Origin: Thermodesulfobacteriota bacterium
GTDB lineage: Bacteria; Desulfobacterota_D; UBA1144; Nemesobacterales; JAJCZQ01
Assembly (NCBI GenBank): GCA_965203965.1
Contig: CBDBDR010000005.1
Span: 1 to 16,163 of the forward strand
Reading direction: 5' to 3'
Length of the DNA: 16,163 nucleotides
Part shown: piece after piece, positions 1 to 16,163 of the stretch
Position numbering within the stretch: the first letter of the stretch is position 1
How the letters are laid out: every line of letters starts with the position of its first letter
Made by a program: the position numbers and the translations under genes
The notes under the pieces: model-generated
Told to the model about the DNA's origin: nothing
Seen by the model: only the letters and a program-made list of their open reading frames with translations
Database searches by the model: none

Positions 1-1
1 A

Positions 2-505
2 ATCCGATATACCAACAGAAAATCCAGCTGCCTTTAATTCATCGATACGCTTTAAACTATCTTCGATGCACCTGCCATGAACACAGTGAAATTTACTGGC
101 TGGTTTGATACGACAGTTGTCAAATGCTGTTATAATCTTCGGTGTACATTTTGCATAATATGGTGAATAAGAAATCAAGGTTTCAGAGATTTCCTCAAGA
201 CTGTATTTGTAGTTTTCTATTAGTATGTTTTCAGCATGTTTCCCATCTTCGCCCTTTTTCTTCTTTTTCCTGCTGATAAATCCAGGGCAGTAGCAGTCTG
301 CTACAACTGGCGCTGCTACCACCCAGGACAAGTTGTACTTGAAGTCTAAGTATCTGACGTATATTGAATGAAATCCTGCCTCCAAGCAAGGGAGGAAAGG
401 ATTGTTCTCAGTGAAGTTTCTAGTACTTAAGTTTACGTGAAAACTGACTGCAGAAGCTTCCCAGATACTGAGTTCTTTATTTTTCTCTATAGGGAGAAAT
501 GACAT
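2..505 (-). CDS. AID/APOBEC-like deaminase paralog, copy 1 (subfamily B); 3' end runs off the window; first zinc Cys replaced by Tyr
   Basis: Not in the ORF track because no stop lies in the window. Manual translation from ATG at 505: MSFLPIEKNKELSIWEASAVSFHVNLSTRNF...NLSWVVAAPVVADCYCPGFISRKKKKKGEDGKHAENILIENYKYSLEEISETLISYSPYYAKCTPKIITAFDNCRIKPASKFHCVHGRCIEDSLKRIDELKAAGFSVGISD. HAE at 230-238, SPYYAKC at 146-166. SWVVA, KHAE, KPA.KF.C.H and GF..G align with copy 6. Confidence 0.85.
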   Translation of the reverse strand, partial: MSFLPIEKNKELSIWEASAVSFHVNLSTRNFTENNPFLPCLEAGFHSIYVRYLDFKYNLSWVVAAPVVADCYCPGFISRKKKKKGEDGKHAENILIENYKYSLEEISETLISYSPYYAKCTPKIITAFDNCRIKPASKFHCVHGRCIEDSLKRIDELKAAGFSVGISD

Positions 506-537
506 GATCTACTACATTACAACACTCCTAGCTAGTC

Positions 538-544
538 TTATATA
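538..544 (-). promoter_or_regulatory. Candidate TATA box (TATATAA) for copy 1
   Basis: About 33 nt upstream of the ATG at 505; copy 2 has TATAAAA at a similar spacing. Confidence 0.4.
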
Positions 545-953
545 GCCTTAAAACCACGTGCTGAGTTTTCAGGGAAAAATTCCAGAAATTGCTCTTTCGC
601 CGACGTATTGTGAATATCATTTTTATGACTGTTAAAATGCAGTTCACTACCCAAAATTTCCGTTCATCGACGATAATTCGAGACTCGAGGATAATAGCGA
701 AAAAATGTTCCGTCCAGCCCTCGGTAGCATCATTGGCTTGAAGCTTCTCGTTTTTATAGACCTGCTACCGCTACACGTCGAGAAATCTGGTGTGATAATT
801 GCTACATCATTTCGGGGATCGCATGCACTTCGTGATTTATAGATTTCACTGAAAGTCGCTAGCAAAGCACGGACACGCGTCAACATGCTTCACAGCAAGT
901 TTCGGGCTAAAGAATTTGAGTCATAACTATGTGGCTGGTTGGCATAAATTATA

Positions 954-1299
954 CTACGTTACGTAGTATCTATGGCATAGCTTACTAGCTGTCCCACTTG
1001 TGTTTATGGTTACTTGCAGTTGCAGATGACCCTTTCCAGTGGTAGTGGGTCTAGCAAACATTGCATAGTTAGGTATAGAAATCAGTAGGTTACGCTGAGT
1101 AAACACTTTTATTTGAAAATCGACACTGAAAGATGGCTCATGTAGTTTCATTTTGATGTATTTAATATTTGATCTCGTATTTTTTGCTCCCTTCATTTTG
1201 CACTCTTGAAGTTGCGTTTCCGTTTTACTTTTCTCTGGATCTTCAGCAGCAATCAGATAGTCCGCTGGTCTCCTCTCAGCAATTATATCCCAGGCATCA
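954..1299 (-). pseudogene. C-terminal fragment of deaminase copy 2 (subfamily A)
   Basis: Translates DAWDIIAERRPADYLIAAEDPEKSKTETQLQECKMKGAKNTRSNIKYIKMKLHEPSFSVDFQIKVFTQRNL, colinear with copy 3 (HAWDITTEKKPVDYLTEAEKP...ARNTRSMIEDIKSKLHKLYFCVGYPKAQVKVFTSNL). Homology stops at about 1299, where the long inverted repeat begins. Confidence 0.85.
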
Positions 1300-1677
1300 A
1301 CAAGAAATTAAAAAGATTTCTGTCGAAATCAAAAGGATGTAGGGTTGTAAAATCTACCACTGGTCCACAATGCAATCTAACAAGAAACAAGTATGGAATG
1401 GTAACACGATTGACTTGCTAACAGACCATAGATCCCTACATCAGTGGCTGCTGTGGTTGGCTATAGCTAGGTCAGCTAGTTGCTGTTGACACCTGACGTG
1501 CATTCCGCTTGTGACATCTTATGTACAGCCACTGATGTAGGGATCTATGGTCTGTTAGCAAGTCAATCGTGTTACCATTCCATACTTGTTTCTTGTTAGA
1601 TTGCATTGTGGACCAGTGGTAGATTTTACAACCCTACATCCTTTTGATTTCGACAGAAATCTTTTTAATTTCTTGTT
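1299..1677. repeat. Perfect 152-bp inverted repeat with 75-bp spacer
   Basis: 1299-1450 is the exact reverse complement of 1526-1677 (checked base by base); spacer 1451-1525; no target-site duplication seen. Confidence 0.95.
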
Positions 1678-2199
1678 TGCGTCCTTTTTTCCTTTTAGTG
1701 AAGTGCAGTTCAATATCATGAACGTACTGAGCTGTCTTTGTTTCCACCAATGGTTTAGTTTCCTGTTGTTGATGGCTTTTCTTTATTATTAAGAATTTTA
1801 AACTTGTAGCTAAAAATAATTGTTATGCTGTACATATCAGCTCGCCTACGCTTGTATGCATGCATGCATGCAGTGGATACGAGCCCCGCCCACACTTGTT
1901 TGTAGACCTGTAGGGCGGTTATAATTATCTGGCAAGCGCAGAATGGTGATCCTATACGAGCTTACCTTTCTTCGAAGACTCCAGCCAAATATGTGTTCTC
2001 CGTGATCCATACGGCGTGGCGATACTCAAGCTAGTGCTTGGTCACGTGCGCTAACCACTTCGTGATCACGTGCGTATTGCGCAATCACAATTATGGCGTC
2101 TAACACTTATGGATTATGATCGAGAACTCGCGGAATTTATATCGCCGTTTCGCTAAAAACAAAGTTCAAAAGGCACTTGCCAGGAGAATTTCACGACTG

Positions 2200-2499
<300 letters not shown>

Positions 2500-2766
2500 T
2501 GGTGAATATGTTATGTAAATAGCCTCAACATAAAGCTGTCTAGTTCTAGCAAGGTATCTTATCTCTATCTCCTCAGCATGATATCCATATTGAGGTGTGC
2601 TCTTAGCCACGATGTATTTATAGCAACCATATTCATGACATTCTGCAACAGCTACAGCATGCTTCGGATAGTACTTCTGCCAGGGTTTACATCTTATCGA
2701 TGCTATCTGTAAATTGATCTCACAGAAACGAATACTTATAAAAAGGCTTTGAAAGTAATGTAACAT
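2500..2766 (-). pseudogene. N-terminal fragment of deaminase copy 2 (subfamily A)
   Basis: MLHYFQSLFISIRFCEINL...CKPWQKYYPKHAVAVAECHEYGCYKYIVAKSTPQYGYHAEEIEIRYLARTRQLYVEAIYITYSP aligns closely with copy 3. Homology ends right after SP, before CxxC; the rest of ORF 2404-2766 is foreign sequence. Confidence 0.9.
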
Positions 2767-2806
2767 TATAGAATTTATAGTAATAGTAAACTTACTCTTC
2801 TCAGCC

Positions 2807-2863
2807 TTTTATAGGCTGTCAAGTGCTATTATTAGAAATTACAAATACATAATTATGACATCA
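2807..2863 (-). promoter_or_regulatory. Candidate promoter of copy 2: TATAAAA (2807-2813) and TGACATCA (2856-2863)
   Basis: TATA about 41 nt upstream of the ATG at 2766; 2823-2885 is homologous to 5552-5628, the displaced upstream region of copy 3. Confidence 0.5.
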
Positions 2864-3644
2864 TGTACTTAATTCATAACGTGCTATGGTTTTACTTGTG
2901 CAATTCATGGTTACCTTCTTAGGATCCTTGGAATTTTCATGTGCGCATGGCACACATACTTGCAAACCGGATCATGCCCAGGATTGCAAAATGGTCGGTC
3001 GTTTTGAAGTGCTGCATGTGATGAGAGTACGTGTGTACATGCAAAATACTCTTTTTGTCATTAGAACTATGCCTACTTTCCTTTATATTCATAGCTGCTT
3101 ACTATTAAAGACGTGGTACAGTGCTTTTATTATCAAAATCACTTCACCAGTACTTCATGACAGAGAGAAAAGCTTGATACATCAGCTATTGCTTCGTGTC
3201 GTAATTGTTCCCAGTGTGAGTCTTCAGGCTTATTCATGTCCTAACTTTTGAGTCCTACATGTACTGTAAACAGGCTACATAATTCTGTCGAGTGTTACCA
3301 TACATTTTTTGTCTATCATCCAAATGATCTAATGTACATGTAAGTTTGTGACAAATAAATTTCACCCTTGTATTCTGCTTGTGTTAGTGAGTTTCGTGCG
3401 AAACAAGAAAGCCGCTATAATATCTGAGTCTATTGGTGTTGGAAACATTATACTGTATCATTGCCAGAAATGTTTTGTTTTTAAAGTGCGTGACGCAGGC
3501 GAACATGTTTTATTTATGTGAGTATGCTGTGCTTGACTAGTCTGGTTTATAATGACAACACTTGATTACAAGTGCTACCTATCTTGTTCCTTTACTTCAC
3601 ATTACCCCTACACTTTTAAAATAATTTTTACTTGTAAATAAAAA

Positions 3645-4334
3645 TCAGATTTTTAAATTTGAAGTAAACACTTTAACTTGTGCCTTTGGATAACCAACAC
3701 AAAAATATAGTTTATGTAGTTTCGATTTTATGTCTTCGATCATTGATCTTGTATTTCTGGCTCTCTCTTGAAACATTATTTTACACCTTTCAAGATGCAT
3801 TTCCATTCTTCTTCTCTTTTGTTTTCTTGGTTTCTCTGCTTCTGTCAGATAGTCCACTGGCTTTTTCTCAGTAGTAATATCCCAGGCATGAATTTGAAAT
3901 CCATCTCGGATCAACAGCTTAAGACTCCGAATAGCTCCTTCATGTTTCCTGGCTCCTGGTTTACCATAGATGCAGAGAAATTTAATATTTGGTTTTTTAT
4001 AAAGCCGGAAAGTACCAAGGAGAAGCGTTGTACAGGAAGAACACGGTGAATATGTTATGTAAATAGTCTCAACATCTGCAAGCTGTCTAGTTCTAGCAAG
4101 GTGTCTTATCAGTATCTCCTCAGCATGGTATCCTTCATCATGACCACAAGGAGGTGTGCTCTTAGCGACGATGTATTTATAACGACCATATTGATCACGA
4201 CATTCTGCAACAGCTACAGCGTACTTTGGGTAGTACTCCTGCCAGGGTTTACACTCTGCCGCTTGGGCTACCTGTGACAACTTGATGTCACAGACAAAAA
4301 TACCTGTAAAAAGACTTAAATAATAATTCAAGAT
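3645..4334 (-). CDS. AID/APOBEC-like deaminase paralog, copy 3 (subfamily A); catalytic motifs intact but no in-frame ATG
   Basis: Uninterrupted frame with HAEE (4116-4127), IYITYSPCSSC (SPCSSC 4032-4049), KPNIKFLCIY and SLKLLIRDGFQIHAWD, the strand/helix order of AID/APOBEC-type deaminases. The track start is TTG; the codon matching the copy 2 ATG is ATC (4332-4334). Confidence 0.85.
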   Translation of the reverse strand: MLNYYLSLFTGIFVCDIKLSQVAQAAECKPWQEYYPKYAVAVAECRDQYGRYKYIVAKSTPPCGHDEGYHAEEILIRHLARTRQLADVETIYITYSPCSSCTTLLLGTFRLYKKPNIKFLCIYGKPGARKHEGAIRSLKLLIRDGFQIHAWDITTEKKPVDYLTEAEKPRKQKRRRMEMHLERCKIMFQERARNTRSMIEDIKSKLHKLYFCVGYPKAQVKVFTSNLKI

Positions 4335-4365
4335 AATGGCTAGTTACTGGTTTTCTAGCCTTTAA

Positions 4366-4956
4366 CCCTTTAACCCCTAATGTCGCCTTTTGGCGACATA
4401 CATACTTCAGACACCATAACTTTATCAAAAAGTGTTAAAATATCCAAAAATTAAGCCAAATTGAATAATACAAATAACCGCCAAAAATTGACCGGTTTTC
4501 GGCGCGCCCCCTGCGCTAAACGTTATGGTGACGGCATTTCTATGGCTTCAGTGCAAAATTCACAACATTTTAGGAAAAACAAAATGGCTGCCAAGAAAAT
4601 TGGGACATTTTATGGCTTCAGGGTGCTCGGAAACACATTTTTGGACATTCTCTATGATCTGGGCTACATTTTGCACTCACCAAAACCACTGCTATTTGTG
4701 TGTACTTTTCAGCAGCCAGCCCCAAAGTACTAACTTTGAGCAAAATTTGACGAGGTCATCGCACTTTATCAGCTTCACTTTCGAAGTGGGAGGGGCATAT
4801 TGACCGACTTGAGTGTGGGCAATTGCGGCTACTCACTGGGGTAAAAGGACGCAAATTTGAGACCAGTAGCTCAAAAGACACACCAGATATTCACGAGAGA
4901 AGTGGTCAGCATTTACGAGGTTAAAATTTCAGCTGGATAATTTAGTAATTAAAGGG
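4366..4956. mobile_element. Non-autonomous piggyBac-like element (591 bp), TTAA target duplication
   Basis: TTAA(4362-4365) CCCTTTAA...TTAAAGGG TTAA(4957-4960); internal sequence recurs at about 6630-6984 and 13460-13826; no transposase ORF. Confidence 0.85.
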
Positions 4957-4960
4957 TTAA

Positions 4961-5533
4961 GGGTGGAAATCCCAAACATCAGGATTACGAAAATTTTGGT
5001 TTCTACTGTTAGTTGAAGGTTTGGTCAGTCACACTGATCACCCAAGAAAGTCGCCATTCGTCTTGTGGGCGTAGCAAGCCCCACCCAATGACGAAAAGTT
5101 GCGTTTCTTTCCTGAGCATGCCACACCCACACAAAATGTCAGACATAAACTTTGGTAGACAAGGAAGAAACGTATGTATCGGATTTTGCAAAAAGGTCTC
5201 TGTCTGTAAGTTACAGAGGGGCGAATATTTAATGAGAACAAACGATTTCGGCAAAAATCCCTTACCAGCAGCGATGGAAGAAGATACATCTCCTTTTGCC
5301 AGAGCACCAAAAAAATGCCACCTGACGCCCTCCCACCCTCCCCACGACCCACCCACTCCTATGTGGGTCTCTCCTGATTGCCGAGTACGAAATAATTTTG
5401 TTCCAAATACGGCAAGTGCTACTGGAGTGTGGGTACACCCATTTTCCTTGTAAAACGGGCAAGTAATAGCCAGGACACTGTAGATTATATTGTGCAAAGG
5501 GCAGCAAGAAAGAATAGTTCGGGTTTTCCTGGC
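4961..5533. mobile_element. Second TTAA-flanked non-autonomous element (573 bp), possibly Kolobok-like
   Basis: Left end GGGTGGAAATCCCAAAC; right end reverse complement GCCAGGAAAACCCGAAC (12 of 17 match). TTAA at 4957-4960 and 5534-5537. Homology to the copy 2 upstream region resumes just beyond 5537. Confidence 0.7.
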
Positions 5534-5537
5534 TTAA

Positions 5538-5630
5538 ACATCCAATTCTTCTGTGGTATTATTAGAAGCTCTGATTGCATCATCATGACATCACTTGGTT
5601 ACTTAATAATATTCATGAGCATGATATTCA
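5538..5630 (-). promoter_or_regulatory. Displaced upstream region of copy 3, with TGACATCA at 5586-5593
   Basis: gtggtattattagaa...catcatcatgacatca...tacttaat...attcat aligns with gtgctattattagaa...cataattatgacatca..tacttaattcat upstream of copy 2. Confidence 0.6.
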
Positions 5631-6106
5631 TGATTATTTTGCTATCTTTGTAGGCTGCTGATGCATTGCAAACGTCACTAGCTGTACAATCAGTTATTTA
5701 GAAATGAAAATACATTACGCTTTGCAGAGATTATTGAATCGTGAGTTGTATAATGCACTAACCCGTGCAGAATTTAAATCTCATAAATGCAGATCATTCT
5801 GTTATCTGTTAAATAAAAGTCAGAATTTGTTATGTCTGCACTCGTGAGATGATGAGATCATGCAAGAAATATTTATTACTCAGCATCTGCAAAGTGATGC
5901 ATTAGCACGATGTGGGTAAATCAATACTCAACTTAACTATGATCATAGTTTATTGTATGACTAGCAAATGCACCGAATGGGTACAGGGGTGTGGCATCAT
6001 TGACCAACTACGCATGCATATAAACTATCACCATGAGGAAGCTGGCTGGAACAGCCACCATATTCAGCATTAGGATCAAATCAGCTGTTCCAATGACTGT
6101 ACGAAT

Positions 6107-6575
6107 CCTCTCAGCAGTTATATCCCAGGCATCACTTGGAAACCAATCTTTGATCAGTAGTTTAAAAATCTGAATAGCTCCTTCATGTTTCCTGCTTCCT
6201 GGTCTTCTATAGACGCAGAGAAATTTAATCATTGGTTTTCTGTAGCAATTAGAAAATGCATCAAGAACTAGAAGTAACATTGTACAGGTGAACATGTTAT
6301 TCTCAGCATCTTCAAGCTGTCTAGTTCTAGCTTATCAGTATCTCCTCAACATGGTATCCTTCATCATGACCATAAAGACGTGTGCTCTTAGCCACAATAT
6401 ATTTATAGCGACAATAATATTGATCACGACATTTTGCCACAGTTATGGCATGCTTCAGTTAGTATCTCCTGGCCTGCAAGACTAAGTATCTCCTCAGCTA
6501 ACCTTTATGGCTCGTTTAGCTCAGGCAACTTTATCTTACAGAAAGGAGTGCTTGTGAAAATACACTTACATATTA
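6107..6575 (-). pseudogene. Deaminase copy 4 (subfamily A), pseudogene
   Basis: Colinear with copy 3: FTSTPFCKIKL, YIVAKST, GHDEGYHVEEILI (HVEE 6342-6353), KPMIKFLCVYRRPGSRKHEGAIQIFKLLIKDWFPSDAWDITAER. A deletion near 6285 removes the first Cys of PCxxC and shifts the frame; further deletions and stops; 3' end lost at about 6107. Confidence 0.9.
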
Positions 6576-6592
6576 AAATTTTGGCAACTTAA

Positions 6593-6984
6593 CCTTGGCT
6601 TTATTGCAAATTTTGCCATAATTTTTATAAGGCCGTCAAGAAAAGTTTTGACATCTTATGGCTTCAGGACACTCGGAAGACACATTTTCACATCAATAAA
6701 TCTTTATAATCTGGGCTACATTTTGTCAGTGCTATTTGTATGTACATGTATTTTTCAGTAGCCAGCACCAAAGTTCTAACATTGACGAGGTCATTGCACT
6801 TTATTGGCTTCACTTTTGCAGTGAGAGGGGCCTCGTGATCAACTTGAGCATGGACAATTGTGGCTACTCACTGGCAAGAAAGGACACAAGTTTGAAAACA
6901 ATAGCACAAAACCCACAAGATACTCTCGAAAGAATTGGCCATCATCTTATAATTCCATCATGATTTATTATTAATTTTAAAGGT
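6593..6984. mobile_element. Degenerate, internally deleted copy of the piggyBac-like element
   Basis: TTAA(6589-6592)CC... and ...TTAAAGGT TTAA(6985-6988); internal matches to 4586-4900 (tatggcttcagg, tctgggctacattttg, gacgaggtcat, gctactcactgg). Confidence 0.8.
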
Positions 6985-7020
6985 TTAATCAATCTACTTA
7001 ATTATTTTTTGCTGAGTCTA

Positions 7021-7624
7021 CTAGTTGGGGTTACATTCCTCAGTGTGATGTAGGCTTGTATTTAGTTGTATGTTAGGGGCTGCTTCAGCAATCGCGTCAC
7101 ATAATTGTACAGCATTTCTTTCTATTTCTTCCGGCATGCTTAGAATCATGTCATCAAGTCTCCAATCTTTTCTTACTTCAAAGTCATGCCATTACAACAA
7201 TTCAATATTCTTCCTAACATGTTTAGTTATATGTCGTTGGTTTAGTACGCTGGAACCGAAATGCCAATATTAAATATACTGTGCAACTGCTGCAGGGAGG
7301 GTATGTCAAGTAGATTGATTCAATGTCTTCAATATTTTTCCTTTACTGTATTCATCAAGCAGTATTTTCTCAGCATGGACACCAGAAGTTTTTCCGTCAT
7401 CCTGCGATGCAGTGGCCACGAACTTCCTGTCTGCTTTTCGACAATGTTTGTGGTGCTTTACTACCGCAAAACTCAACGAATTATTTCGGTAAAGATTGTC
7501 ACTATTGGACCACTTGTAATTTCCGGCGACCAGGTTCTGGAAATTATTTGGTTCTACGAGTTGTACTTCTTGGTTTATCATGATGTTCAGTTCGAGTGCC
7601 ACGCCGTAGGTACGCGAATTATCG
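7021..7624 (-). pseudogene. Deaminase copy 5 (subfamily B), main body, pseudogene
   Basis: SLSFAVVKHHKH...FVATASQDDGKTSGVHAEKILLDEY (HAE 7369-7377). Frameshift at the A5 run (7335-7339), then NIEDIESIYLTYPPCSSCTVYLILAFRFQRTKPT (PPCSSC 7283-7300). A second deletion/frameshift follows, then HITKHVRKNIELL*WHDFEVRKDW (TAA 7192-7194), matching copy 6 HITRS...KNLQLLQTNGFELGVW. That frame ends at TAG 7021-7023. Confidence 0.88.
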
Positions 7625-8817
7625 TAGCGATGCCAGATACTAATGCAAACAATAAAAGACTTACAGCGAAGAGTCTTTTCTTTCATAAGAAACAAATGTG
7701 CTCATACTTTGAGATACAAGCCCAGCGCTTTTTAGCAATCTTTGTTCTGTGTTATTAGACCGAGTAGTTCTCGAGATATTGAACGTCGAAAGTTTGCTTC
7801 TAATTACTCGTAATACAAATTAATATTGAAAATCAGTGTGCTAATAGCCAAATATTAATTTAGCATGTAGAACTATACATACTACCAGTTTAGAACTAGT
7901 GTTATTTTTAACGGAAAAATGCGGAAACGCAATATTCAAATTTGTTGTTTTTTTTACACATGTATATGGTAGGAGCCGAAATGGCAACAGCTAGTAGTGC
8001 AGAAAGATACGCTGGGGATCACTGCAAGAAGCTGGGTCTCTCTATCAACCAGTTTTATTCCGCAAGCCAAGTGATGAAGATAACGAACATTAAGAAGGGT
8101 GCAGTGTATGAGCTCTGCCAGGTACGAAAGTCTAGGGGTACTCCTTGGAGAGACTTCTATGAGTTGATGAGAGCAGTGTGTGATGAATCGTTTACAGTCT
8201 CATTTGAAAGTTTTAAAGTTATGGTTGGTAGGCTAGAAAAGAGGAGAAGTTTACTATTGCGAAACAAGAAAAGAGAATATATTGAGGTTTTATTAGGAGA
8301 GCCGTTTTGTGGCAGGCATACCATTCCAGAGCCTGTTACTGACTCGGAAGACAGTGTGCTAGCAAAGGAAAGAGCAAAGACTGAAGAGTTAACTGCTAAC
8401 TCCAGCATCTCTTTAGTGGCTCAAACGACTAATTAATGACAGAGGATCAAAAGACGTGATTTTAAGATTGCTGAGTCCACAGCCCAGATCAATGAAATGG
8501 ACAGAGAAAGAGAATCTTGGGATAAATGCATCACCAAACTTGCCAGCTATAGTAATTAATGTGTTTTCTTGAACTCAAACCACTAATTAATGACATCACT
8601 AGTCATGTATAAACATTACATAACAAGGTGCCACAGTTTGTACAGTGAAGTGGTGCACAAACTATTGGCTGTTTGCCTTATTTTAAAATTTAATATCTCA
8701 GGATTGGTTGCAGCTAACGACTTACTTTTTGGTGAATGATATAAAACAACAATTGTAGAATTTTTGGAAAATTTTAAGTACCTATTTAAATGCAAAAAAA
8801 TTTTCCTGGCATCGCTA
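7625..8817 (+). mobile_element. Internally deleted DNA transposon (1193 bp) inserted in the 5' coding region of copy 5
   Basis: Perfect terminal inverted repeats TAGCGATGCCAG (7625-7636) / CTGGCATCGCTA (8806-8817); flanking duplication ATTATCG (7618-7624 and 8818-8824), extendable to AATTATCGT if the terminal T/A are counted as target. Confidence 0.88.
7981..8558 (+). pseudogene. Truncated transposon-borne ORF, probably the N-terminus of the element's own protein
   Basis: ORF 7942-8436 (MATASSAERY...) lies wholly inside the TIRs; after two stops the frame continues QRIKRRDFKIAESTAQINEMDRERESWDKCITKL (coiled-coil-like); no DDE core present. Confidence 0.55.
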
Positions 8818-8824
8818 ATTATCG

Positions 8825-8892
8825 TCGTTCTGTTCTATGGTGAGGCAGATAGACAAAAATTGTTGCTGTAACCAGAGACGATAGAAAAATCG
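8825..8892 (-). pseudogene. Separated 5' part of deaminase copy 5
   Basis: Removing 7625-8824 gives an in-frame read RFFYRLWLQQQFLSICLTIEQND-DNSRTYGVALEL, weakly similar to copy 6 DYFRRVWKKVAAAFFVGIKLHL; TAG at 8893-8895 upstream and no ATG found. Confidence 0.5.
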
Positions 8893-8946
8893 CTATCTCG
8901 TCCGGCGCGGCACCGTGCCGTCGTCACATTTTGGCACGTGCGCAAC

Positions 8947-9016
8947 TAGTCTGGCCGCTGCCCCTCCCCGCCTATTGAGTGGGTGCAATAGGCGGGGAGG
9001 GGCAGCGGCCAGACTA
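8947..9016. mobile_element. 70-bp palindromic miniature element with 9-bp target duplication (TAG...CTA ends; Academ-like assignment is inference)
   Basis: Perfect arms 8945-8977 / 8986-9018 with loop AGTGGGTG; GTGCGCAAC duplicated at 8938-8946 and 9017-9025. Confidence 0.85.
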
Positions 9017-9129
9017 GTGCGCAACGAGCGTACTAAAAATAGTGGAAATCCGCACCGAGACTACGCCGTGACGCTTTTTGTGGACAAGATAGTCAGTATG
9101 CGCTGAGATCTTACCGTGAGGCGTATCCA

Positions 9130-9669
9130 GATCAGCAAGCTATGGATGGGCAACAAGCAAGGGATGATAGTCAGCAAGCAATGGACGGGCAGCAAGTAAT
9201 GGATGTTCAGCAAGCAATGGATGATGGTCAGCAAGCAATGGATGGTGGTCAGCAAGCAATGGATGATCAGCAAGCAATTGATTATCAGCAAGAAAGGCAA
9301 GCAATTGATTATCAGCAAGCAATTGATTATCAGCAAGAAAGGCAAGCAATTGATTATCAGCAAGAAAGGCAAGCAATTGATTATCAGCAAGCATTTGAAT
9401 ATCAGCAAGCAATTGATTATCAGCAAGCAATTGATTATCGGGCAGCATTTGAATATCGGCAAGCAATTGATTATCAGCAAGCAGTTGATTATCAGCAAGC
9501 AGTTGATTATCAGCAAGCAGTTGATTATCTGGCAGCATTTGAATATCAGCTAGCAATTGATTATCAGCAAGCAGTTGATTATCTGGCAGCATTTGAATAT
9601 CAGCAAGCAAATGATGATCAGCAAGCAAAGGATGATCAGCAAGCAAAGGATGATCAGCAAGCAATTGAA
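9130..9669 (+). repeat. Coding minisatellite, 18-bp unit GATTATCAGCAAGCAATT (with 21- and 27-bp variants)
   Basis: About 27 units encoding [M/I/V/F/K]-[D/E]-[Y/D/G]-Q-Q-A; all length variants are multiples of 3. Confidence 0.95.
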
Positions 9670-9846
9670 TCTGTTTACACAATTAAATATCAGCAACCTA
9701 AATATCTGCAACCAATGGTTGAACCGACCGATGAAGAGAAGATTGAATTCATCGAGATAGTAGATGATATTAAACACCCGCCAATGCATCGTGACAGCGG
9801 CGATAAACTTAAACGCAAAAGAAAAGTGTTGTTTAGATTACTTTAG
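9142..9846 (+). CDS. Hexapeptide-repeat ORF, probably the N-terminal extension of deaminase copy 6
   Basis: 234-aa ORF: repeats, then a non-repetitive acidic linker and basic KLKRKRK; overlaps the deaminase ORF by 83 nt, which is in the +1 frame. Confidence 0.6.
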   Translation: MDGQQARDDSQQAMDGQQVMDVQQAMDDGQQAMDGGQQAMDDQQAIDYQQERQAIDYQQAIDYQQERQAIDYQQERQAIDYQQAFEYQQAIDYQQAIDYRAAFEYRQAIDYQQAVDYQQAVDYQQAVDYLAAFEYQLAIDYQQAVDYLAAFEYQQANDDQQAKDDQQAKDDQQAIESVYTIKYQQPKYLQPMVEPTDEEKIEFIEIVDDIKHPPMHRDSGDKLKRKRKVLFRLL

Positions 9847-10483
9847 AAGAGTTTGGAAAAAGGTGGCAGCAGCTTTTTTTGTTGGTATCAAATTACATCT
9901 AGAAGCCAAAAATTTTCTTACAGAGACTGGAATCAAGAAGTTACATACTTCTGATAGCATATTACAGACATCCTGGGTTGTGGCAGTAGTAGAGCACCAT
10001 GATCCCAGTAAACAGGACATTATGTTTGTGAGCACATCTCATAATAGTGAACGTGTTGGTAAGCATGCTGAAGAACGGATACTTGAACATTTTGAAAAAA
10101 AATTATCGGCTATCAAATCTATCAACCTGACACATTCTCCTTGTAGTAGCTGCACAGCTCAACTTATCTCAGCATTTTTAAAAATAAAAAAGGAAACCAA
10201 AAGACCAGCCATCAATTTTCTCTGCATCCATATCACTAGATCTAAGTACAGCTACTATCAATCTTTCAAGAATCTTCAGCTTTTGCAGACGAATGGATTT
10301 GAGTTAGGTGTTTGGTGTGACTTTCGTGACAAAATGGAACACAGGTTGCTTAGATTAGGATTTCGAGAAGACTATGAAAAAGTGCGGAATATGTTGGAAA
10401 GACATAGATCAGAATTGAAATATAGAGAATTGAAGTTAAAAATGGTTTTGATGTTTAATGTTACAATAAATCAATTTTATTGA
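9764..10483 (+). CDS. AID/APOBEC-like deaminase paralog, copy 6 (subfamily B), catalytic motifs intact
   Basis: TSWVVAVVEHH...VGKHAEERIL (HAEE 10064-10075), INLTHSPCSSC (SPCSSC 10136-10153), RPAINFLCIH, NLQLLQTNGFELGVW; uninterrupted 239-aa frame with ATG at 9764. Confidence 0.88.
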   Translation: MILNTRQCIVTAAINLNAKEKCCLDYFRRVWKKVAAAFFVGIKLHLEAKNFLTETGIKKLHTSDSILQTSWVVAVVEHHDPSKQDIMFVSTSHNSERVGKHAEERILEHFEKKLSAIKSINLTHSPCSSCTAQLISAFLKIKKETKRPAINFLCIHITRSKYSYYQSFKNLQLLQTNGFELGVWCDFRDKMEHRLLRLGFREDYEKVRNMLERHRSELKYRELKLKMVLMFNVTINQFY

Positions 10484-10985
10484 AGTCATGATACTGTTAC
10501 AGGTGTTCAATTACTGAGTTATTTTATTATGATTATTATGACCTGTACAGTATTATAACTTGTATCATTTTTCAGCAATGCTGACACTGCTGTACATGAC
10601 AAAATATTTCACTTTCTTTGGTACAGTTTCAGTCTACTGAATTATTATTGTAAACCTGCACTGTTGGTTGAGATTGTTAGTGAGGCACATACTTGGCAGT
10701 TGTGAGTTGCCAACTGATGGTGGCACCCATTATACACTGTGTATTTGCTCCTGGTACTGTACGACAAATTAGTACTGATGTCAACTGAATAAAACCTCTT
10801 GGTGCCATTAGTGAAAATGGTTTCATAACAAAAAAAACATCAGAGCCAGCATTGATTACTATCAACACTGTAGACCAACATCATTAAAAGTTTTAAAAGT
10901 GATTTAATTTAGTATTCAGAAAAATGACATCTTGCTTAAAATGTACAGCTACATGTACATTTATAGGTAGGTTTTATTCATGCAG

Positions 10986-11094
10986 TAAAGGAGAGTCCAC
11001 CATGTTCAAGGCTCACACAGCTAGTGTCAGACATGTTGAGTTCTCTAGTGATGGACAATCACTACTGACAGCATCTGATGACAAGACCATTAAG
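10986..11094 (+). CDS. POC1: POC1 centriolar WD40 protein, internal exon (first one visible in the window)
   Basis: tgcAG|...|GTgagg; [36 protein letters not shown], recognisably like POC1A/B (KGESTVFRAHTATVRSV...). Confidence 0.92.
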
Positions 11095-11341
11095 GTGAGG
11101 AATGAGGAATGAGGAATATTGAGATCCAATAAACTGTGTTCATTTGAGGGAAAGAGTGATTTTACCTAAGTGTGTACACTTAAGTAAGAATGAAGTGTGT
11201 GTAGCCCATAAAGAGAAATGCATAATAGAATTATTAGCAGTTTATTTGTATAATTATTATAACCATAGATTAATTTTTGTCTCAAAACAATCACAGATGT
11301 TCTTTGAAACTATACCACTACATAATTGTGATTTGTTCTAG

Positions 11342-11520
11342 GTATGGACGGTTCATCGTCAGAGGTTTCAGTATTGTCTGAGTGGTCACAGTAACTGGGT
11401 GCGCTGTGCTAGGTTCTCTCCCGACAGTCGACTGATAGTGTCCGCTAGTGATGACAAGACTGTGCGAGTATGGGACAAGATGAACAAGGAGTGTATCCAT
11501 ACCTTCAATGAACAGAGTGG
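11342..11520 (+). CDS. POC1: POC1 exon
   Basis: ttctAG|...|GTtagt; [60 protein letters not shown]. Confidence 0.95.
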
Positions 11521-12403
11521 GTTAGTATTCAACAAATTTTAGTCTCTTTATTGTGTTGTATCTGGAAAAGCTACTTGTACATGTATCTTCATCACTGATA
11601 GATTTGTGCTTGTGTTTCTCTACATGTGTACTGTATGTGTACTCTTGACAGCCTCTTGTTGTGTTCTTGCTTGTGTGTATCTGTTTCACCTGTGGGGCTA
11701 TGAATTAGCTTATGTACAGTTCAATACCTAGAAGTAGGTTAGAACCACCCAACATGTAACATGAAACTATTCCAGGCAGTCCCCTGCTACATGTAACACC
11801 CATAATGTTATTCTAGCTGTTGACCCTCCCCACCCCAGCTGTTGACCCTTTTTGAAATGTGATACTATGTTGATTGCTGGGTGAGTGGTGGTTTACTAAG
11901 AATAACATACACTGTATTATACTAAAGGTAAAATAATTATTGTAAGGTAAATAAGTATTAGTTATTGCCCTCACGCGAGGGCATCAACCGACATTAATGA
12001 CCGCGGGAAAGTCTGTTGCCCGAGACTGTACGAGGGCAAACGAGTTGTGTAGGCAATAAATGATTTATTACATAGTTCATCACTGTGAGCGCAATAACAT
12101 CGGGAAGACGCTACTCGTGGTCAATAACCTACATTAATGTAGGTTATTGACAATCCGATTGGTGAAAAAAATAGAGCAATCCGATTGGTGAAAGATGACA
12201 TACCATGTAATAAATGCTTGATACAAGCATTTTATTAATTTTGTTGTCTGCAACAAATTGCATTGTGCATAACATCGTTGAATCCCATTCATTGCAGGTA
12301 GCTATGCCGCTTAGTGCCTTTATACCAGTACATTTACATTTCAAAATTCAAGAGCCATTTCCTCTCCTCCCTCTTATGACTATCCTCATCTGTTGTTGTG
12401 TAG

Positions 12404-12519
12404 GTTTGTCCAGTCAGTGGCGTTCCATCCTGATGGTAACTGTATAGCTGCCGGCACTACTGATAATGTGGTCAAGATATGGGATATTAGAGTGAACAAG
12501 TTACTACAGCACTATAAAG
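12404..12519 (+). CDS. POC1: POC1 exon
   Basis: tgtAG|...|GTatgt; [38 protein letters not shown]; phases agree with both neighbours. Confidence 0.95.
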
Positions 12520-12721
12520 GTATGTCACTTAGATAACAGAATTACTATGTTAGATAATAGAATACTAGAATACTACCCTAATGTATACATTGTAAATTTA
12601 TTGTCTATGTAAGGTATTGTTCATTATCTATGGTCTGACACACACACTTGACCACACATCATGAATGCTTTTGAAAGCTCATTCACTGATTATTTAACTC
12701 CTTAGAAAGTTTATGTGGTAC

Positions 12722-12923
12722 CAGGGTTCATGGGAATGGGTGATTTCCCACCTCCAACTCCAGTGTCTCCTCCAAGAATCATTTTCAGAAAGTTAATTTT
12801 TTTCTTTAGTGCTTCTTTTGTGTCAAAATAGCCTAGACGGCCTCATGTACATGTACTCAGAGTTGACTCAGACTCTCTAAAAAGCTGATGTTCCCCACAA
12901 GAAAAATTCTGTTTGAATCTCTG
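12722..12923. mobile_element. Small MITE with CAG...CTG ends and 5-bp target duplication (hAT5-like, inference)
   Basis: CAGGGTTCA...TGAATCTCTG flanked by GGTAC at 12717-12721 and 12924-12928. Confidence 0.55.
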
Positions 12924-13012
12924 GGTACACAAATGTGTCTGCTGTACCTGCAGTGCAACAATCCATTTATTAGTCACTGTGTGTACACTACACACTCCTC
13001 CCTCTGTTTACA

Positions 13013-13397
13013 CTGGTGCTTAGCTTGCTAGTAACAATGCTATCACAAACCTCTAATGGGTCACCACCACCTTCATCCATCCTTATGTTACTCTTACAGT
13101 ATGTCTAGGGCAGGTCTAGGGCATAGAAACACTGTAGATCAGAAATTTTCACCTATAAAATTTTGTATGTTGAATTTTCGAGTTGTTTAATTTTCGTTGC
13201 TAGCTGCACGTATAATACAAATTCTCATTGTGTTAAGTTTTCGTGTTGTTTAATTTTCTTTGCAAGGATGGACGACTAAATAAATTTTAGCGCCGAAAAT
13301 TTCCCAATCTACGGTACTGTAAGAGTAACAGAAGGTGTGTGAAGGCGGTGACCAGTGGGTGTTAGTGCATTGTTACCAGAAAAGCTAGGGCATCACT
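13013..13397. mobile_element. Degenerate foldback element with ~85-bp imperfect arms
   Basis: 13016-13101 (tagtaacaatgc...ggtcacc...ccttca...tgttactcttacagta) is an imperfect reverse complement of 13315-13397 (tactgtaagagtaaca...tgaagg..ggtgacc...gcattgttacca). Confidence 0.65.
13132..13314. mobile_element. Tc1/mariner-type MITE nested in the foldback element
   Basis: CTGTAGATCAGAAATTTTC ... GAAAATTTCCCAATCTACGG followed by TA; internal aattttcg repeats; related to 14950-15121. Confidence 0.7.
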
Positions 13398-13440
13398 AAG
13401 AGCTTATTAAACCCCACAACACATCCTACAAACAGCACAA

Positions 13441-13826
13441 CACACAATTTTGAATCTTTTTGACATTCCACGGCTTCAGGACACCCGGAAAACACATTTT
13501 TGCACATTCTCCATGATCTGGGCTACATTTTGCACTCACCTAAACCACTGCTATTTATATGTACTTTTCAGTAGCCAGCCCCAAAGTACTAACTTTGAGC
13601 AAAATTTGATGAGATAGTTACACTTTATCAGATTCACTGCCGCAGTGGGAGGGGCATATTGACCGACTTGAGTGTGGGCAATTGCAGCTACTCACTGGCG
13701 AAGAAGGACACAAATTTGAGACCAGTAGCACAAAAGACACACGAGATATTCGCACACACACAGTCTTGAGAATTGTAGCATTTACGAGGTTAAAATTCCA
13801 GCAAGATAATTTTAGTATTTAAAGGG
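13441..13826. mobile_element. Third copy (right-hand part) of the piggyBac-like element, in a POC1 intron
   Basis: High identity to 4605-4956; ends TTTAAAGGG followed by TTAA (13827-13830); left end not resolved. Confidence 0.85.
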
Positions 13827-13935
13827 TTAAACACTGGGCTATAATTGTTGCCAGGTAAACGCTGAGTACTAAATAAGTAAACAACAACCAGTTTTATTTT
13901 GTTTTCTGCCAAAGGTTTTTTGAAAAATTAAGCGC

Positions 13936-13970
13936 CAGTGCATGTCACATGTGACATGTGACATGCACTG
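13936..13970. repeat. Short palindrome with 17-bp arms built from CACATGT/GACATGT units
   Basis: cagtgcatgtcacatgt-g-acatgtgacatgcactg. Confidence 0.8.
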
Positions 13971-14580
13971 TCACATGATGCCTAGTGTGCGTATTCTATA
14001 TCATGAGTTCAGTTCAGTGCAGTACAACAACACATTTTGCCTTTTTATCATAACAAATTGAAATTTTCGTGGCTAAATTTCGTTGCCATAATGTATGAGG
14101 ATTACGCAAAAATTTGCGCTGGGAGCACCCACAAAACGCGAACAAATTATCATCTCAAAATTTCCTACGTTTACTGTACACCACAGCACTCTGATACATC
14201 ACTACTAACAAGGCATTGAGATGAGCATACACTGTCTCGAGAGGCGGGACATAGTAACATAAAATGTGATTGTAACTCAGTCCCTTACAATGACGGGGCT
14301 GCTTACTCCATCATGTGACTTAGTACATTGTAACATAGTAAAACCGATAATTTTAAGATAATCAGTTGCATTCTCTAGAATTAAAATGTGATGTGAACCA
14401 AACCACATGGCTCTTGCTGTCTCTTTACACTGTTGCAGACCTCATCCAGTATTCTCCTCAGTAACATAGTGGAGTTTTTAAGCTCAGTAGCCCATAATCA
14501 GTTGCTTGTAGAATCAATTATTTCTGATGAGTCTTCTTAGTTGTGTGTGATAATTCTTCTTGTCTCTCACTCCACTATAG

Positions 14581-14663
14581 TGCATACTGGTGCTGTCAAC
14601 GGTCTGGCATTCCATCCCTCTGGCAACTATCTCCTCTCCTCCTCTTCTGATGCAACTCTAAAG
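14581..14663 (+). CDS. POC1: POC1 exon
   Basis: ctatAG|...|GTgact; (V)[27 protein letters not shown]. Confidence 0.95.
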
Positions 14664-14720
14664 GTGACTGTCACTTGTTTCATAGCAAGTCACTGGTCTC
14701 TGTTGCTGTGTTCACAATAG

Positions 14721-14771
14721 ATATTTGATCTTATTGAGGGACGACCATTCTACACATTACATGGACACAAG
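14721..14771 (+). CDS. POC1: POC1 exon
   Basis: caatAG|...|GTatag; IFDLIEGRPFYTLHGHK; preceded by a 57-nt intron. Confidence 0.93.
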
Positions 14772-14779
14772 GTATAGTA

Positions 14780-14921
<142 letters not shown>

Positions 14922-14949
14922 AACATTACTCCTACGAAATAAATTATTA

Positions 14950-15121
14950 CTGTATAGTGGGAAATTTTCGCGATTGCGTGAGATTGAGCATTTCAGTAAT
15001 AATATTTTCAGCGCTATTAGCTTATCTTTGTCAACTAAAACAAGACATTCGCGGATAAAATTTTTGCAAACAGTCTGAAATTCACGAAAACTTTCTACCG
15101 TGAAATTTTCCTGCTATACGG
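14950..15121. mobile_element. Tc1/mariner-type MITE with TA target duplication
   Basis: TA CTGTATAGTGGGAAATTTTCGCG ... CGTGAAATTTTCCTGCTATACGG TA. Confidence 0.75.
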
Positions 15122-15491
15122 TATTCCACCATTCTATTACAACCCCCAAAAATGTTTTGTGGTGAGCAAAATTTTAGATTCTCAGATTTTGCTCAAAAAA
15201 ATTATTTTGTAAAATTAAGAATGTGCGTTGCAGCACTGAATTCAAGTTTTTAAAGGAGAAGGCAACATATTATGAGCTATCTTGGCTCATCAACACACTC
15301 AAGCAGAACCAATAGAAACCGCCTTCCACTTCAGCATAATAATAATTTGCCTTTTTATGTTGCTTGAGAAATCTGCCCTTTAGTATGTTTTTCGATCATT
15401 ATTGATAACAAAATAATAATAAAGATTCACAAAAAAAAATTAATAAGAAAAAAATTTTGGAGTTAAATGTGGCTGTCAATTCATTCTACAG

Positions 15492-15560
15492 GGACCTATC
15501 AATAGTGTGGATTTTTCACCATCTGGAGAGTTCTTTGCTTCTGTTAGCAACGATGAACAG
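15492..15560 (+). CDS. POC1: POC1 exon
   Basis: ctacAG|...|GTaacc; GPINSVDFSPSGEFFASVSNDEQ. Confidence 0.93.
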
Positions 15561-15613
15561 GTAACCACCATCATTCCTCTCCTTGTTGTTCATGTTCCTT
15601 CTCCTCATCCTAG

Positions 15614-15659
15614 GTCTTAGTGTGGAAGACAAACTTCGATAGTATAGACTACACTGAAG
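15614..15659 (+). CDS. POC1: POC1 exon (end of the WD40 domain)
   Basis: cctAG|...|GTaacg; VLVWKTNFDSIDYTE, the W[KR]TNFD motif closing the POC1 propeller; preceded by a 53-nt intron. Confidence 0.92.
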
Positions 15660-15794
15660 GTAACGTTATGATAGTGTTTTACTACTGTGCTTCAACTGTT
15701 GCCTTTTTTGTCTTTCCCACTGTCACTCACTCTCTCACACTCTCTTCTTTCTCTTGTTCTCTGACTGTCTCTTTCTATCTCATTCCTCATTCTC

Positions 15795-15950
<156 letters not shown>

Positions 15951-15958
15951 TCTCCCAG

Positions 15959-16044
15959 TGCTCAAGGGTCAGAGGAAGAGACCAGCTCCTGCTCAACATC
16001 ATGAACATGATCCTCCTCCTTCGCTATCAACTGCTGGACAAGAG
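15959..16044 (+). CDS. POC1: Probable POC1 linker exon
   Basis: cccAG| with matching phase; (V)LKGQRKRPAPAQHHEHDPPPSLSTAGQE; donor GAG|GTacct inferred because the frame otherwise stops at 16068. Confidence 0.7.
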
Positions 16045-16115
16045 GTACCTCATATCATCATCGAATAGTTTTTGCGAGGGATAGAGAGGAGGAGGAGGGA
16101 GAGAGATTGTTACAG

Positions 16116-16163
16116 TCACCCTCAGCCCATGTGCGAGGGATACAGTACCTGCAACGTTCCTAT
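16116..16163 (+). CDS. POC1: Possible next POC1 linker exon, running off the window
   Basis: ttacAG| then open SPSAHVRGIQYLQRSY; implies a 71-nt intron; no conserved motif to confirm. Confidence 0.45.

Follow-up and report, generated by a model that had tools for sequence, protein, structure and literature searches.

A tandem cluster of six AID/APOBEC-like deaminase copies, two of them intact, on a eukaryotic contig within a bacterial genome assembly

The DNA analysed here (hereafter the window) comprises 16,163 nucleotides, the entire contig CBDBDR010000005.1 (C5) of assembly GCA_965203965.1, which is filed under the name Thermodesulfobacteriota bacterium, and it carries six homologous deaminase loci between positions 1 and 10483. 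We consider it very probable that these loci form a host germline tandem cluster of genes for AID/APOBEC-like polynucleotide cytidine deaminases (AADs) that evolves by birth and death, and that its two intact members, copies 3 and 6, are candidate active enzymes. The window is eukaryotic DNA inside a bacterial assembly, and its host was most likely a marine invertebrate, probably a mollusc. Duplication, repeat-mediated disruption, decay by small insertions and deletions, a lost zinc ligand and a segregating frameshift are found together in a single 10-kb stretch, making it a well-resolved example of turnover in invertebrate mutator-deaminase arrays. At the same time copies 3 and 6 provide two intact candidate C-to-U editors, from lineages without named relatives in the searched collections.

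The six loci and their family identity

A tblastn search of the window with the two intact open reading frames (ORFs) recovered all six homologous loci that the original prediction had seen in 10.5 kb, while no seventh locus with a match better than E 0.27 was found in the whole window. Copies 1 to 5 lie on the reverse strand. Copy 1 (2..508) is an ORF whose C-terminus is cut off by the start of the contig and which is matched by copy 6 over 2-505 (E 1e-8). Copy 2 is split into an N-terminal part (2500..2772, tblastn match 2772-2449, E 1e-31) and a C-terminal part with strand 5 and the C-terminal helices (1095..1307, match 1307-1098, E 3e-15). Copy 3 (3645..4343) is intact, with 232 codons from stop to stop and an ATG at 4331 from which 228 amino acids are encoded, and corresponds to the predicted protein P0001. 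Copies 4 (6107..6485) and 5 (7084..7557) are pseudogenes, each matched in two frames (6455-6333 and 6331-6107, E 6e-31, and 7557-7342 and 7339-7253, E 2e-7, respectively). Copy 6 (9764..10483) is located on the forward strand and is an intact ORF of 239 amino acids.

The motifs HAE, SPCSSC, KPNIKFLC and LKLLIRDGF are found in copy 3, and HAE, SPCSSC, RPAINFLC and LQLLQTNGF in copy 6. Both thus hold all four motifs that had originally been ascribed to each of the six copies, but the set is incomplete in copies 1, 2, 4 and 5, and the zinc site H-x-E...P-C-x(n)-C, present in copies 3 and 6, is not intact in copies 1, 2 and 4. The earlier tally of two intact copies, one with a lost Cys and three broken ones was correct. 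The start of copy 3 (4286-4331) encodes a short hydrophobic stretch followed by VAQA-AE, which slightly resembles a signal peptide and aligns with helix 1 of longer relatives.

Both intact copies were recognized by Pfam families of the AAD group, copy 3 by AID (30.4 bits, cut-off 27.3) and NAD1 (27.0, cut-off 27) and copy 6 by APOBEC3 (29.6, cut-off 27), while the SNAD4 scores of window copies (24.7 and 25.0) stayed under the cut-off of 27. An exhaustive HMMER search with copy 6 returned 35 cluster representatives at E <= 0.001, and a word-indexed search with copy 3 returned 7 proteins; two relatives, P0001 and P0008, are encoded by the window itself. When 30 family members were aligned and then scanned against Pfam one by one, SNAD4 matched 22 of the 30, NAD1 21, AID and APOBEC_N 18 each, APOBEC3 17 and APOBEC2 14, and throughout the alignment HAE, SPC..C, KP.I.F and L..L...GF were invariant or nearly so. 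The profile of the family, compared with the PDB sequences, had APOBEC3G or APOBEC3H as its best 10 matches (top E 3.5e-8). One match of the copy 6 search, P0018 (943 amino acids), in which Pfam recognized no deaminase family, was discarded as a low-complexity hit. P0011 and P0013 are ORFs with two tandem deaminase-like domains, P0011 having two sets of HAE...PC..C, and represent either double-domain proteins of the APOBEC3 kind or adjacent copies that the gene caller read as one ORF.

The same affiliation was obtained from predicted structures. In AADs the central sheet is defined by a helix between strands 4 and 5, with more helices following strand 5. AlphaFold modelled copy 3 with a mean predicted local distance difference test score (pLDDT) of 79.8 and a predicted template modelling score (pTM) of 0.73, and copy 6 with a pLDDT of 86.5 and a pTM of 0.84. 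Both predicted models have the helix between strands 4 and 5 as well as helices past strand 5 (copy 3: strand 115-120, helix 128-142, strand 146-149, helices 158-166 and 170-211; copy 6: strand 149-154, helix 161-176, strand 180-183, then four helices). Among the matches listed by Foldseek for copy 3, 43 of 44 were APOBEC3, APOBEC1, APOBEC2 or AID, the exception being human dCMP deaminase at rank 47. Re-alignment of the top Foldseek chains with VIA-align gave APOBEC3 or AID for all of the best 50 entries of either model, with Z 12.1-13.8 over ~150-164 residues and a root-mean-square deviation near 3.1 for copy 3 and Z 15.3-16.7 for copy 6; the APOBEC entries in these listings were APOBEC3A, B, C, F, G and H. 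Pfam, PDB profile, Foldseek and VIA-align thus agree with the initial assignment to AID/APOBEC-type deaminases, and neither a grouping with housekeeping deaminases nor the lack of a deaminase fold was seen in the profile and structure checks on copies 3 and 6.

Lineages, gene damage and turnover

A maximum-likelihood tree of 41 rows was computed from the six window copies, with X at their breaks, and 35 relatives; P0001 and P0008, being encoded by the window, and P0015, P0018 and P0040, being longer than 450 amino acids, were omitted. Copies 2, 3 and 4 form a clade with P0002-P0007 (support 100/99), which recovers the subfamily A of the original prediction. The proposed subfamily B of copies 1, 5 and 6 resolves instead into three separate lineages: copy 1 with P0021, P0017 and P0039 (100/99), copy 6 with P0009 and P0010 (100/98), and copy 5 with P0022, P0025, P0027 and P0029 (98/97). 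Since copy 1 stands apart from the copy 5 and copy 6 clades, which unite at 94/86, the three do not constitute a group. The four lineages of the array are mutually only ~25-35% identical.

Members of different lineages recur on source contigs of equal size, which serves only as a proxy for one and the same contig: P0009 (copy 6 type) and P0017 (copy 1 type) both derive from contigs of 916,849, P0010 (copy 6 type) and P0029 (copy 5 type) from contigs of 1,115,150, and P0022 and P0025 (copy 5 type) together with P0039 (copy 1 type) from contigs of 503,012. If the proxy holds, this hints at a mixed four-lineage array that is old and shared, and such a cluster may be an old conserved immune locus. 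Equal sizes are also found for P0002, P0004, P0006, P0007 and P0021 (28,313) and for P0001, P0003 and P0005 (216,455), the latter a hint, under the same proviso, that the array to which the window belongs has at least two further genes of copy 3 type beyond the window. Profile scans of metagenome and genome contigs with two smaller family alignments gave no related locus.

The routes by which copies were damaged could be followed in the sequence and in four public sequencing runs, two of DNA (X1 and X2) and two guessed to be RNA (X6 and X8), that were compared with the window by depth in 30 bins. Copy 1, which is 65% identical to P0021 over 177 amino acids, keeps HAE and has SPYYAKC where its relatives have SPCSKC; it has lost the first zinc Cys and is, as judged from its sequence, a probable zinc-site-dead copy. 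Copy 2 is in frame through HAE to ...YITYSP, where its match ends exactly at 2500, and is matched again from 1307 on by strand 5. By comparison with copy 3, ~145 coding nucleotides (CSSC...LLIRD) are missing, and in their place lies a high-copy interspersed repeat of ~1.19 kb (1308..2499), with a word depth ~1000-fold or more that of unique bins in the two DNA runs and with many run contigs having loose ends at 2500. ORFs inside the interspersed repeats of the window contained no Pfam domain at the cut-off, and the copy 2 insert therefore resembles a non-autonomous repeat. A perfect 152-nt inverted repeat (1299-1450 and 1526-1677, with a 75-nt spacer) that borders the C-terminal part could be a hairpin element or a fold-back artefact of the assembly. 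In its first 89 residues P0007 is equal to copy 2, and it continues with the middle part missing from copy 2. Its sequence points to a haplotype or relative free of the repeat insertion, although the SSC of the zinc motif is lacking in P0007.

Copies 4 and 5 decayed through small changes. In copy 4, HVE replaces HAE, an 8-bp deletion follows the helix-2 codons, and two further deletions, of 8 and 10 bp, remove SPCSSC; a frame change and stops are present as well. Copy 5 keeps GVHAEK and PPCSSC, but its frame shifts near 7342 and again near 7230, NIELL*WHDF contains an in-frame stop, and strand 4 is deleted. Gene death by repeat insertion, by insertions and deletions and by loss of a zinc ligand bears out the birth-and-death turnover that had been proposed for this array.

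These observations are best explained by a history in which four old lineages of one family became mixed in one cluster, each deaminase domain being encoded in one exon. Local duplication would have given rise to copies 2, 3 and 4, and copies would have died when a repeat inserted and coding sequence was deleted, when small indels arose or when a zinc ligand was lost. The surviving copies 3 and 6 are predicted to be zinc enzymes that hydrolytically deaminate cytosine in single-stranded DNA or RNA, yielding uracil; the zinc would be bound by the His and two Cys, with the Glu as proton shuttle. APOBEC3 and the tested sea urchin and brachiopod enzymes suggest by analogy that viral or retroelement nucleic acids would most likely be the targets of mutation.

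Copy 6 is preceded by a second open frame on the same strand (9043..9846; 267 codons, first ATG at 9142), which ends 83 nt inside copy 6 in another frame. It contains an 18-bp tandem repeat (9132-9668) encoding hexapeptides of the QQAMDG/QQAIDY kind, followed by an acidic stretch and then DKLKRKRK. At 9830..9832 on the forward strand the window and run X6 read TTT, whereas X1 and X2 read TT, lacking one T at the full depth of the single contig that covers the site in each. This difference of 1 nt leaves the repeat ORF and copy 6 in separate frames in the window allele, while in the TT form the repeat frame continues into ...DYFRRVWKKVAAAFF..., and the ORF, counted from the ATG at 9142, then comprises ~450 codons. 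The copy 6 lineage might accordingly possess a new AAD architecture, with a ~190-residue tail of repeats rich in Q, D, A and Y, an acidic linker and KRKRK ahead of the deaminase domain, and the T-run would then switch the tail on or off between haplotypes; we regard this as tentative and on balance rather doubtful. The in-frame form of X1 and X2 speaks for a fusion, and so do the closest relatives, P0009 and P0010, which have unrelated low-complexity N-terminal extensions of ~70 residues that end in basic residues before the same helix-1 motif, as well as 55 non-repeat codons ahead of the junction that are open in that frame only. On the other hand, a codon-position test revealed no coding signal in the 18-bp repeat, whose units vary least at third positions (entropy 0.86, 0.70 and 0.60 at positions 1, 2 and 3), and the relatives seem to be plain ORF calls, P0008 starting at a GTG read as Met. 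Upstream of the tandem repeat, the stretch 8885-9106 is palindromic, encodes the same peptide on both strands, is raised in depth in all runs and has loose ends of X6 contigs at 8947 and 9022; it is probably another repeat.

Alternative explanations and the origin of the contig

Several observations weigh against an active AAD cluster of invertebrate origin. The general family dCMP_cyt_deam_1 recognizes copy 3 as well (32.2, cut-off 25), and on its own this copy has a weak best match in PDB (APOBEC3H, E 0.045). No single contig of the four runs spans the array. Pairwise dN/dS (the ratio of non-synonymous to synonymous divergence) was below 1, with no overall signal of positive selection. Of the differences between runs and window that were listed, four of five in copy 3 and three of 11 in copy 1 are synonymous, which is a small chosen sample, 231 of the 271 differences lying beyond those listed. 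The taxon of the host is read from the ESM Atlas clusters nearest to copy 6, which bear APOBEC labels and occur most often in Mollusca, a lead that falls short of proof, and the relatives are unnamed predicted proteins. Finally, we infer enzymatic activity, substrate and immune role from the conservation of motifs and fold and from relatives that have been tested.

That the whole cluster could be a dying remnant, in which copies 3 and 6 are open by chance and have lost their function, is suggested by the damage in four of the six copies, by the window allele of copy 6 without its frame link to the upstream ORF, and by the fact that none of the runs found to hold the window is recorded as RNA. 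Copies 3 and 6 nevertheless keep every conserved position of the family. Compared with pieces of copies 2 and 4 (Nei-Gojobori, pairwise), copy 3 gave dN/dS of 0.32-0.52, values that mix constraint and decay as the partners are pseudogenes, and dS of 0.38-0.90. The duplications among copies 2, 3 and 4 are therefore not recent, and 228 and 239 codons have stayed without a stop for a long time. The mostly silent listed variants of copy 3 point in the same direction, as does run X6, in which a 956-nt contig covers all of copy 6 (9635-10591). Other contigs of this run lie on copy 1, copy 5 and 7971-8817, and four bins have no depth although the DNA runs cover them, at least two of these within introns of the WD40-repeat gene downstream; the pattern is a weak hint of transcription. 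On these grounds we judge a mere remnant to be unlikely.

We attach very little probability to the array, or some of its copies, being an artefact of assembly such as collapsed or chimeric paralogs. Besides the lack of a spanning contig, contigs with ~4-9% divergence that map on copy 1, and the perfect inverted repeat at the break of copy 2, if a fold-back, would be in line with it. Against this, X1 and X2, which come from different coded organisms, samples and studies, show depth in 30 of 30 bins, their independence being partial as either may be the window's own source. Their contigs cover copies 4 and 5 and the junctions with unique flanking sequence without a mismatch (5578-6811 and 6782-7625), and in X1 copies 3, 5 and 6 are covered at a depth (6.6-11.9) similar to that of the single-copy WD40 gene (2.2-6.8, outside repeat bins).

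Duplicated housekeeping deaminases acting on cytidine, dCMP or tRNA adenosine appear scarcely credible to us as the source of the array. The general family dCMP_cyt_deam_1, which copy 3 passes, matches 13 of the 30 family members, and dCMP and cytosine deaminases occur among the weaker matches of the family profile in PDB, a dCMP deaminase being the first non-AAD at rank 11 (E 0.0024). These matches, however, span the catalytic core from HAE to PCxxC only, AAD families match more members, the best 50 fold re-alignments of each model are all APOBEC3 or AID, and a decaying array of several lineages would not be expected of such genes.

The assembly to which C5 belongs consists of 17 contigs and is rated as a prokaryote genome with 99.48% completeness and 0.07% contamination. 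ORFs of at least 150 amino acids make up 0.89 of its main contig of 1.51 Mb and 0.29 of C5, and all 126 of 126 tblastn matches of the family in the assembly are on C5. Downstream of copy 6 the forward strand carries the WD40-repeat gene (10903..16163), which comprises five or more exons; in a contig of run X8, 11340-11519 is followed directly by 12403-12519, the GT..AG intron 11520-12402 having been removed. Because of this spliced gene, the repeats and microsatellites, (AC)n and (CT)n, and the low ORF density, the window is to be regarded as host eukaryotic DNA that was binned with a bacterium. An origin as bacterial polymorphic-toxin deaminases or by recent transfer from bacteria, for which the rating of the assembly, a sub-threshold XOO_2897-deam match of copy 3 (25.4, cut-off 27) and a mostly bacterial Atlas cluster at rank 5 could be quoted, is the least credible alternative in view of an intron spliced out on the same contig, microsatellites and repeats at about thousand-fold or higher depth, the sparse long ORFs, AAD families outscoring bacterial deaminase families, and the absence of relatives from the other contigs of the assembly. 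Taking the contig as eukaryotic, the invertebrate source proposed at the outset is the most likely one, and the prevalence of Mollusca in the Atlas clusters is what makes a mollusc probable. In practical terms, host genes filed in a prokaryote genome could be misread as bacterial; in 13 of the 17 contigs, which sum to ~0.42 Mb of 1.99 Mb, ORFs of at least 150 amino acids take up no more than 0.49 of the length, a eukaryote-like ORF density.

The WD40-repeat gene may be similar to that of the centriolar protein POC1; a protein search with a single exon matched only long multi-WD40 proteins and provided no gene name or taxon. High-copy repeats occupy 4313..5929 between copies 3 and 4. One interspersed element is present three times with 80-91% likeness (4600-4956, 6646-6917 and 13458-13825), twice just upstream of copies 3 and 4 and once in a WD40 intron, and may have either moved along with the duplicated unit or arrived by independent insertion. 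A forward-strand ORF of 174 codons (7912-8436) located between copies 5 and 6 was matched by no Pfam family and by nothing usable in the Atlas. The DNA runs cover it ~2-10 times as deeply as unique flanks, the X6 contig at 7971-8817 covers most of it, and it could represent either a low-copy repeat or an unknown gene. Rfam families and tRNA genes were not found in the window.

Comparison with known deaminase arrays

Classical invertebrate AADs are known for lineage-specific expansions with 2-22 paralogs, the highest number, 22, being found in Crassostrea gigas, and form tandem clusters in Lingula, sea urchins and Nematostella (Krishnan et al. 2018, PMC5889660). The same source describes a pseudogene inside a tandem AAD array, paralog content that varies between individuals and the repeated emergence of catalytically inactive copies. 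Tandem arrays of invertebrate AADs with pseudogenes have thus been described before, and the cluster in the window belongs to this known kind. Later work specific to bivalve AADs was not found in the open-access papers searched.

Among the clades of that study (PMC5889660), the Lophotrochozoan-Echinoderm-Cnidarian clade (Lop-Ech-Cni) in particular resembles the window family in HAE and PCxxC, an aromatic residue and Pro before strand 1, x-Y-S before PC, I-x-F-x-x-x-Y in strand 4, a short loop 7, coding mostly in one exon, and lineage-specific tandem arrays with pseudogenes and dead copies. In the comparison, made by motif and without a joint tree, the NYS of that clade corresponds mostly to [TS][YH]S here (ITYSPC, LTHSPC, ISYSPC), NYS itself being present in P0028 only, and its WP before strand 1 to YYP, YHP or YFP, with SW in copy 6. 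For the low-complexity N-terminal extension of the copy 6 lineage, no counterpart except a nematode CxC fusion was seen in the sections of the paper that were consulted. The Lophotrochozoan-Echinoderm second-zinc clade (Lop-Ech-Zn2), with 13 genes in Crassostrea gigas, is likewise a molluscan AAD expansion and is distinguished by GLH at the end of helix 1, a long loop 7 of 9-28 residues with SC and two C/H, and DW in helix 5 (PMC5889660). Copies 3 and 6, in contrast, have a short loop 7 of ~9-10 residues without SC, which sets them outside this clade, and a His in helix 1 with an FHC.H motif is confined to the copy 1 lineage. Secreted AADs (SNADs) are characterized by a signal peptide and, in SNAD1 and SNAD2, by strands 6 and 7 in place of helices 5 and 6; the models from the window have helices past strand 5, and copy 3 starts with the hydrophobic stretch noted above. 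Canonical Hel-5 and Hel-6 are terms of Table S1 of the study (PMC5889660).

With the mammalian APOBEC3 locus the cluster shares the tandem arrangement, turnover, inactive domains and copy-number polymorphism, and APOBEC3 provides the best fold matches. Sequence identity to the mammalian proteins is, however, 10-20%; the match is one of fold and profile, and the nearest relatives indicate a host other than a mammal. As APOBEC3 derived from AID in eutherian mammals (PMC5889660), the resemblance reflects expansion in parallel rather than orthology. For SpAIDL of the sea urchin and the AID/APOBEC-like genes of Lingula, cytidine deaminase activity, expression in tissues exposed to microbes and induction by pathogen challenge are reported (Liu et al. 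2018, PMC5956068). They are invertebrate AAD families like the one in the window, from different phyla. Compared with these systems, the novelty of the window lies in its individual lineages, in copy 6 with the repeat frame ahead of it and a segregating frameshift, and in a eukaryotic contig filed under a bacterium.

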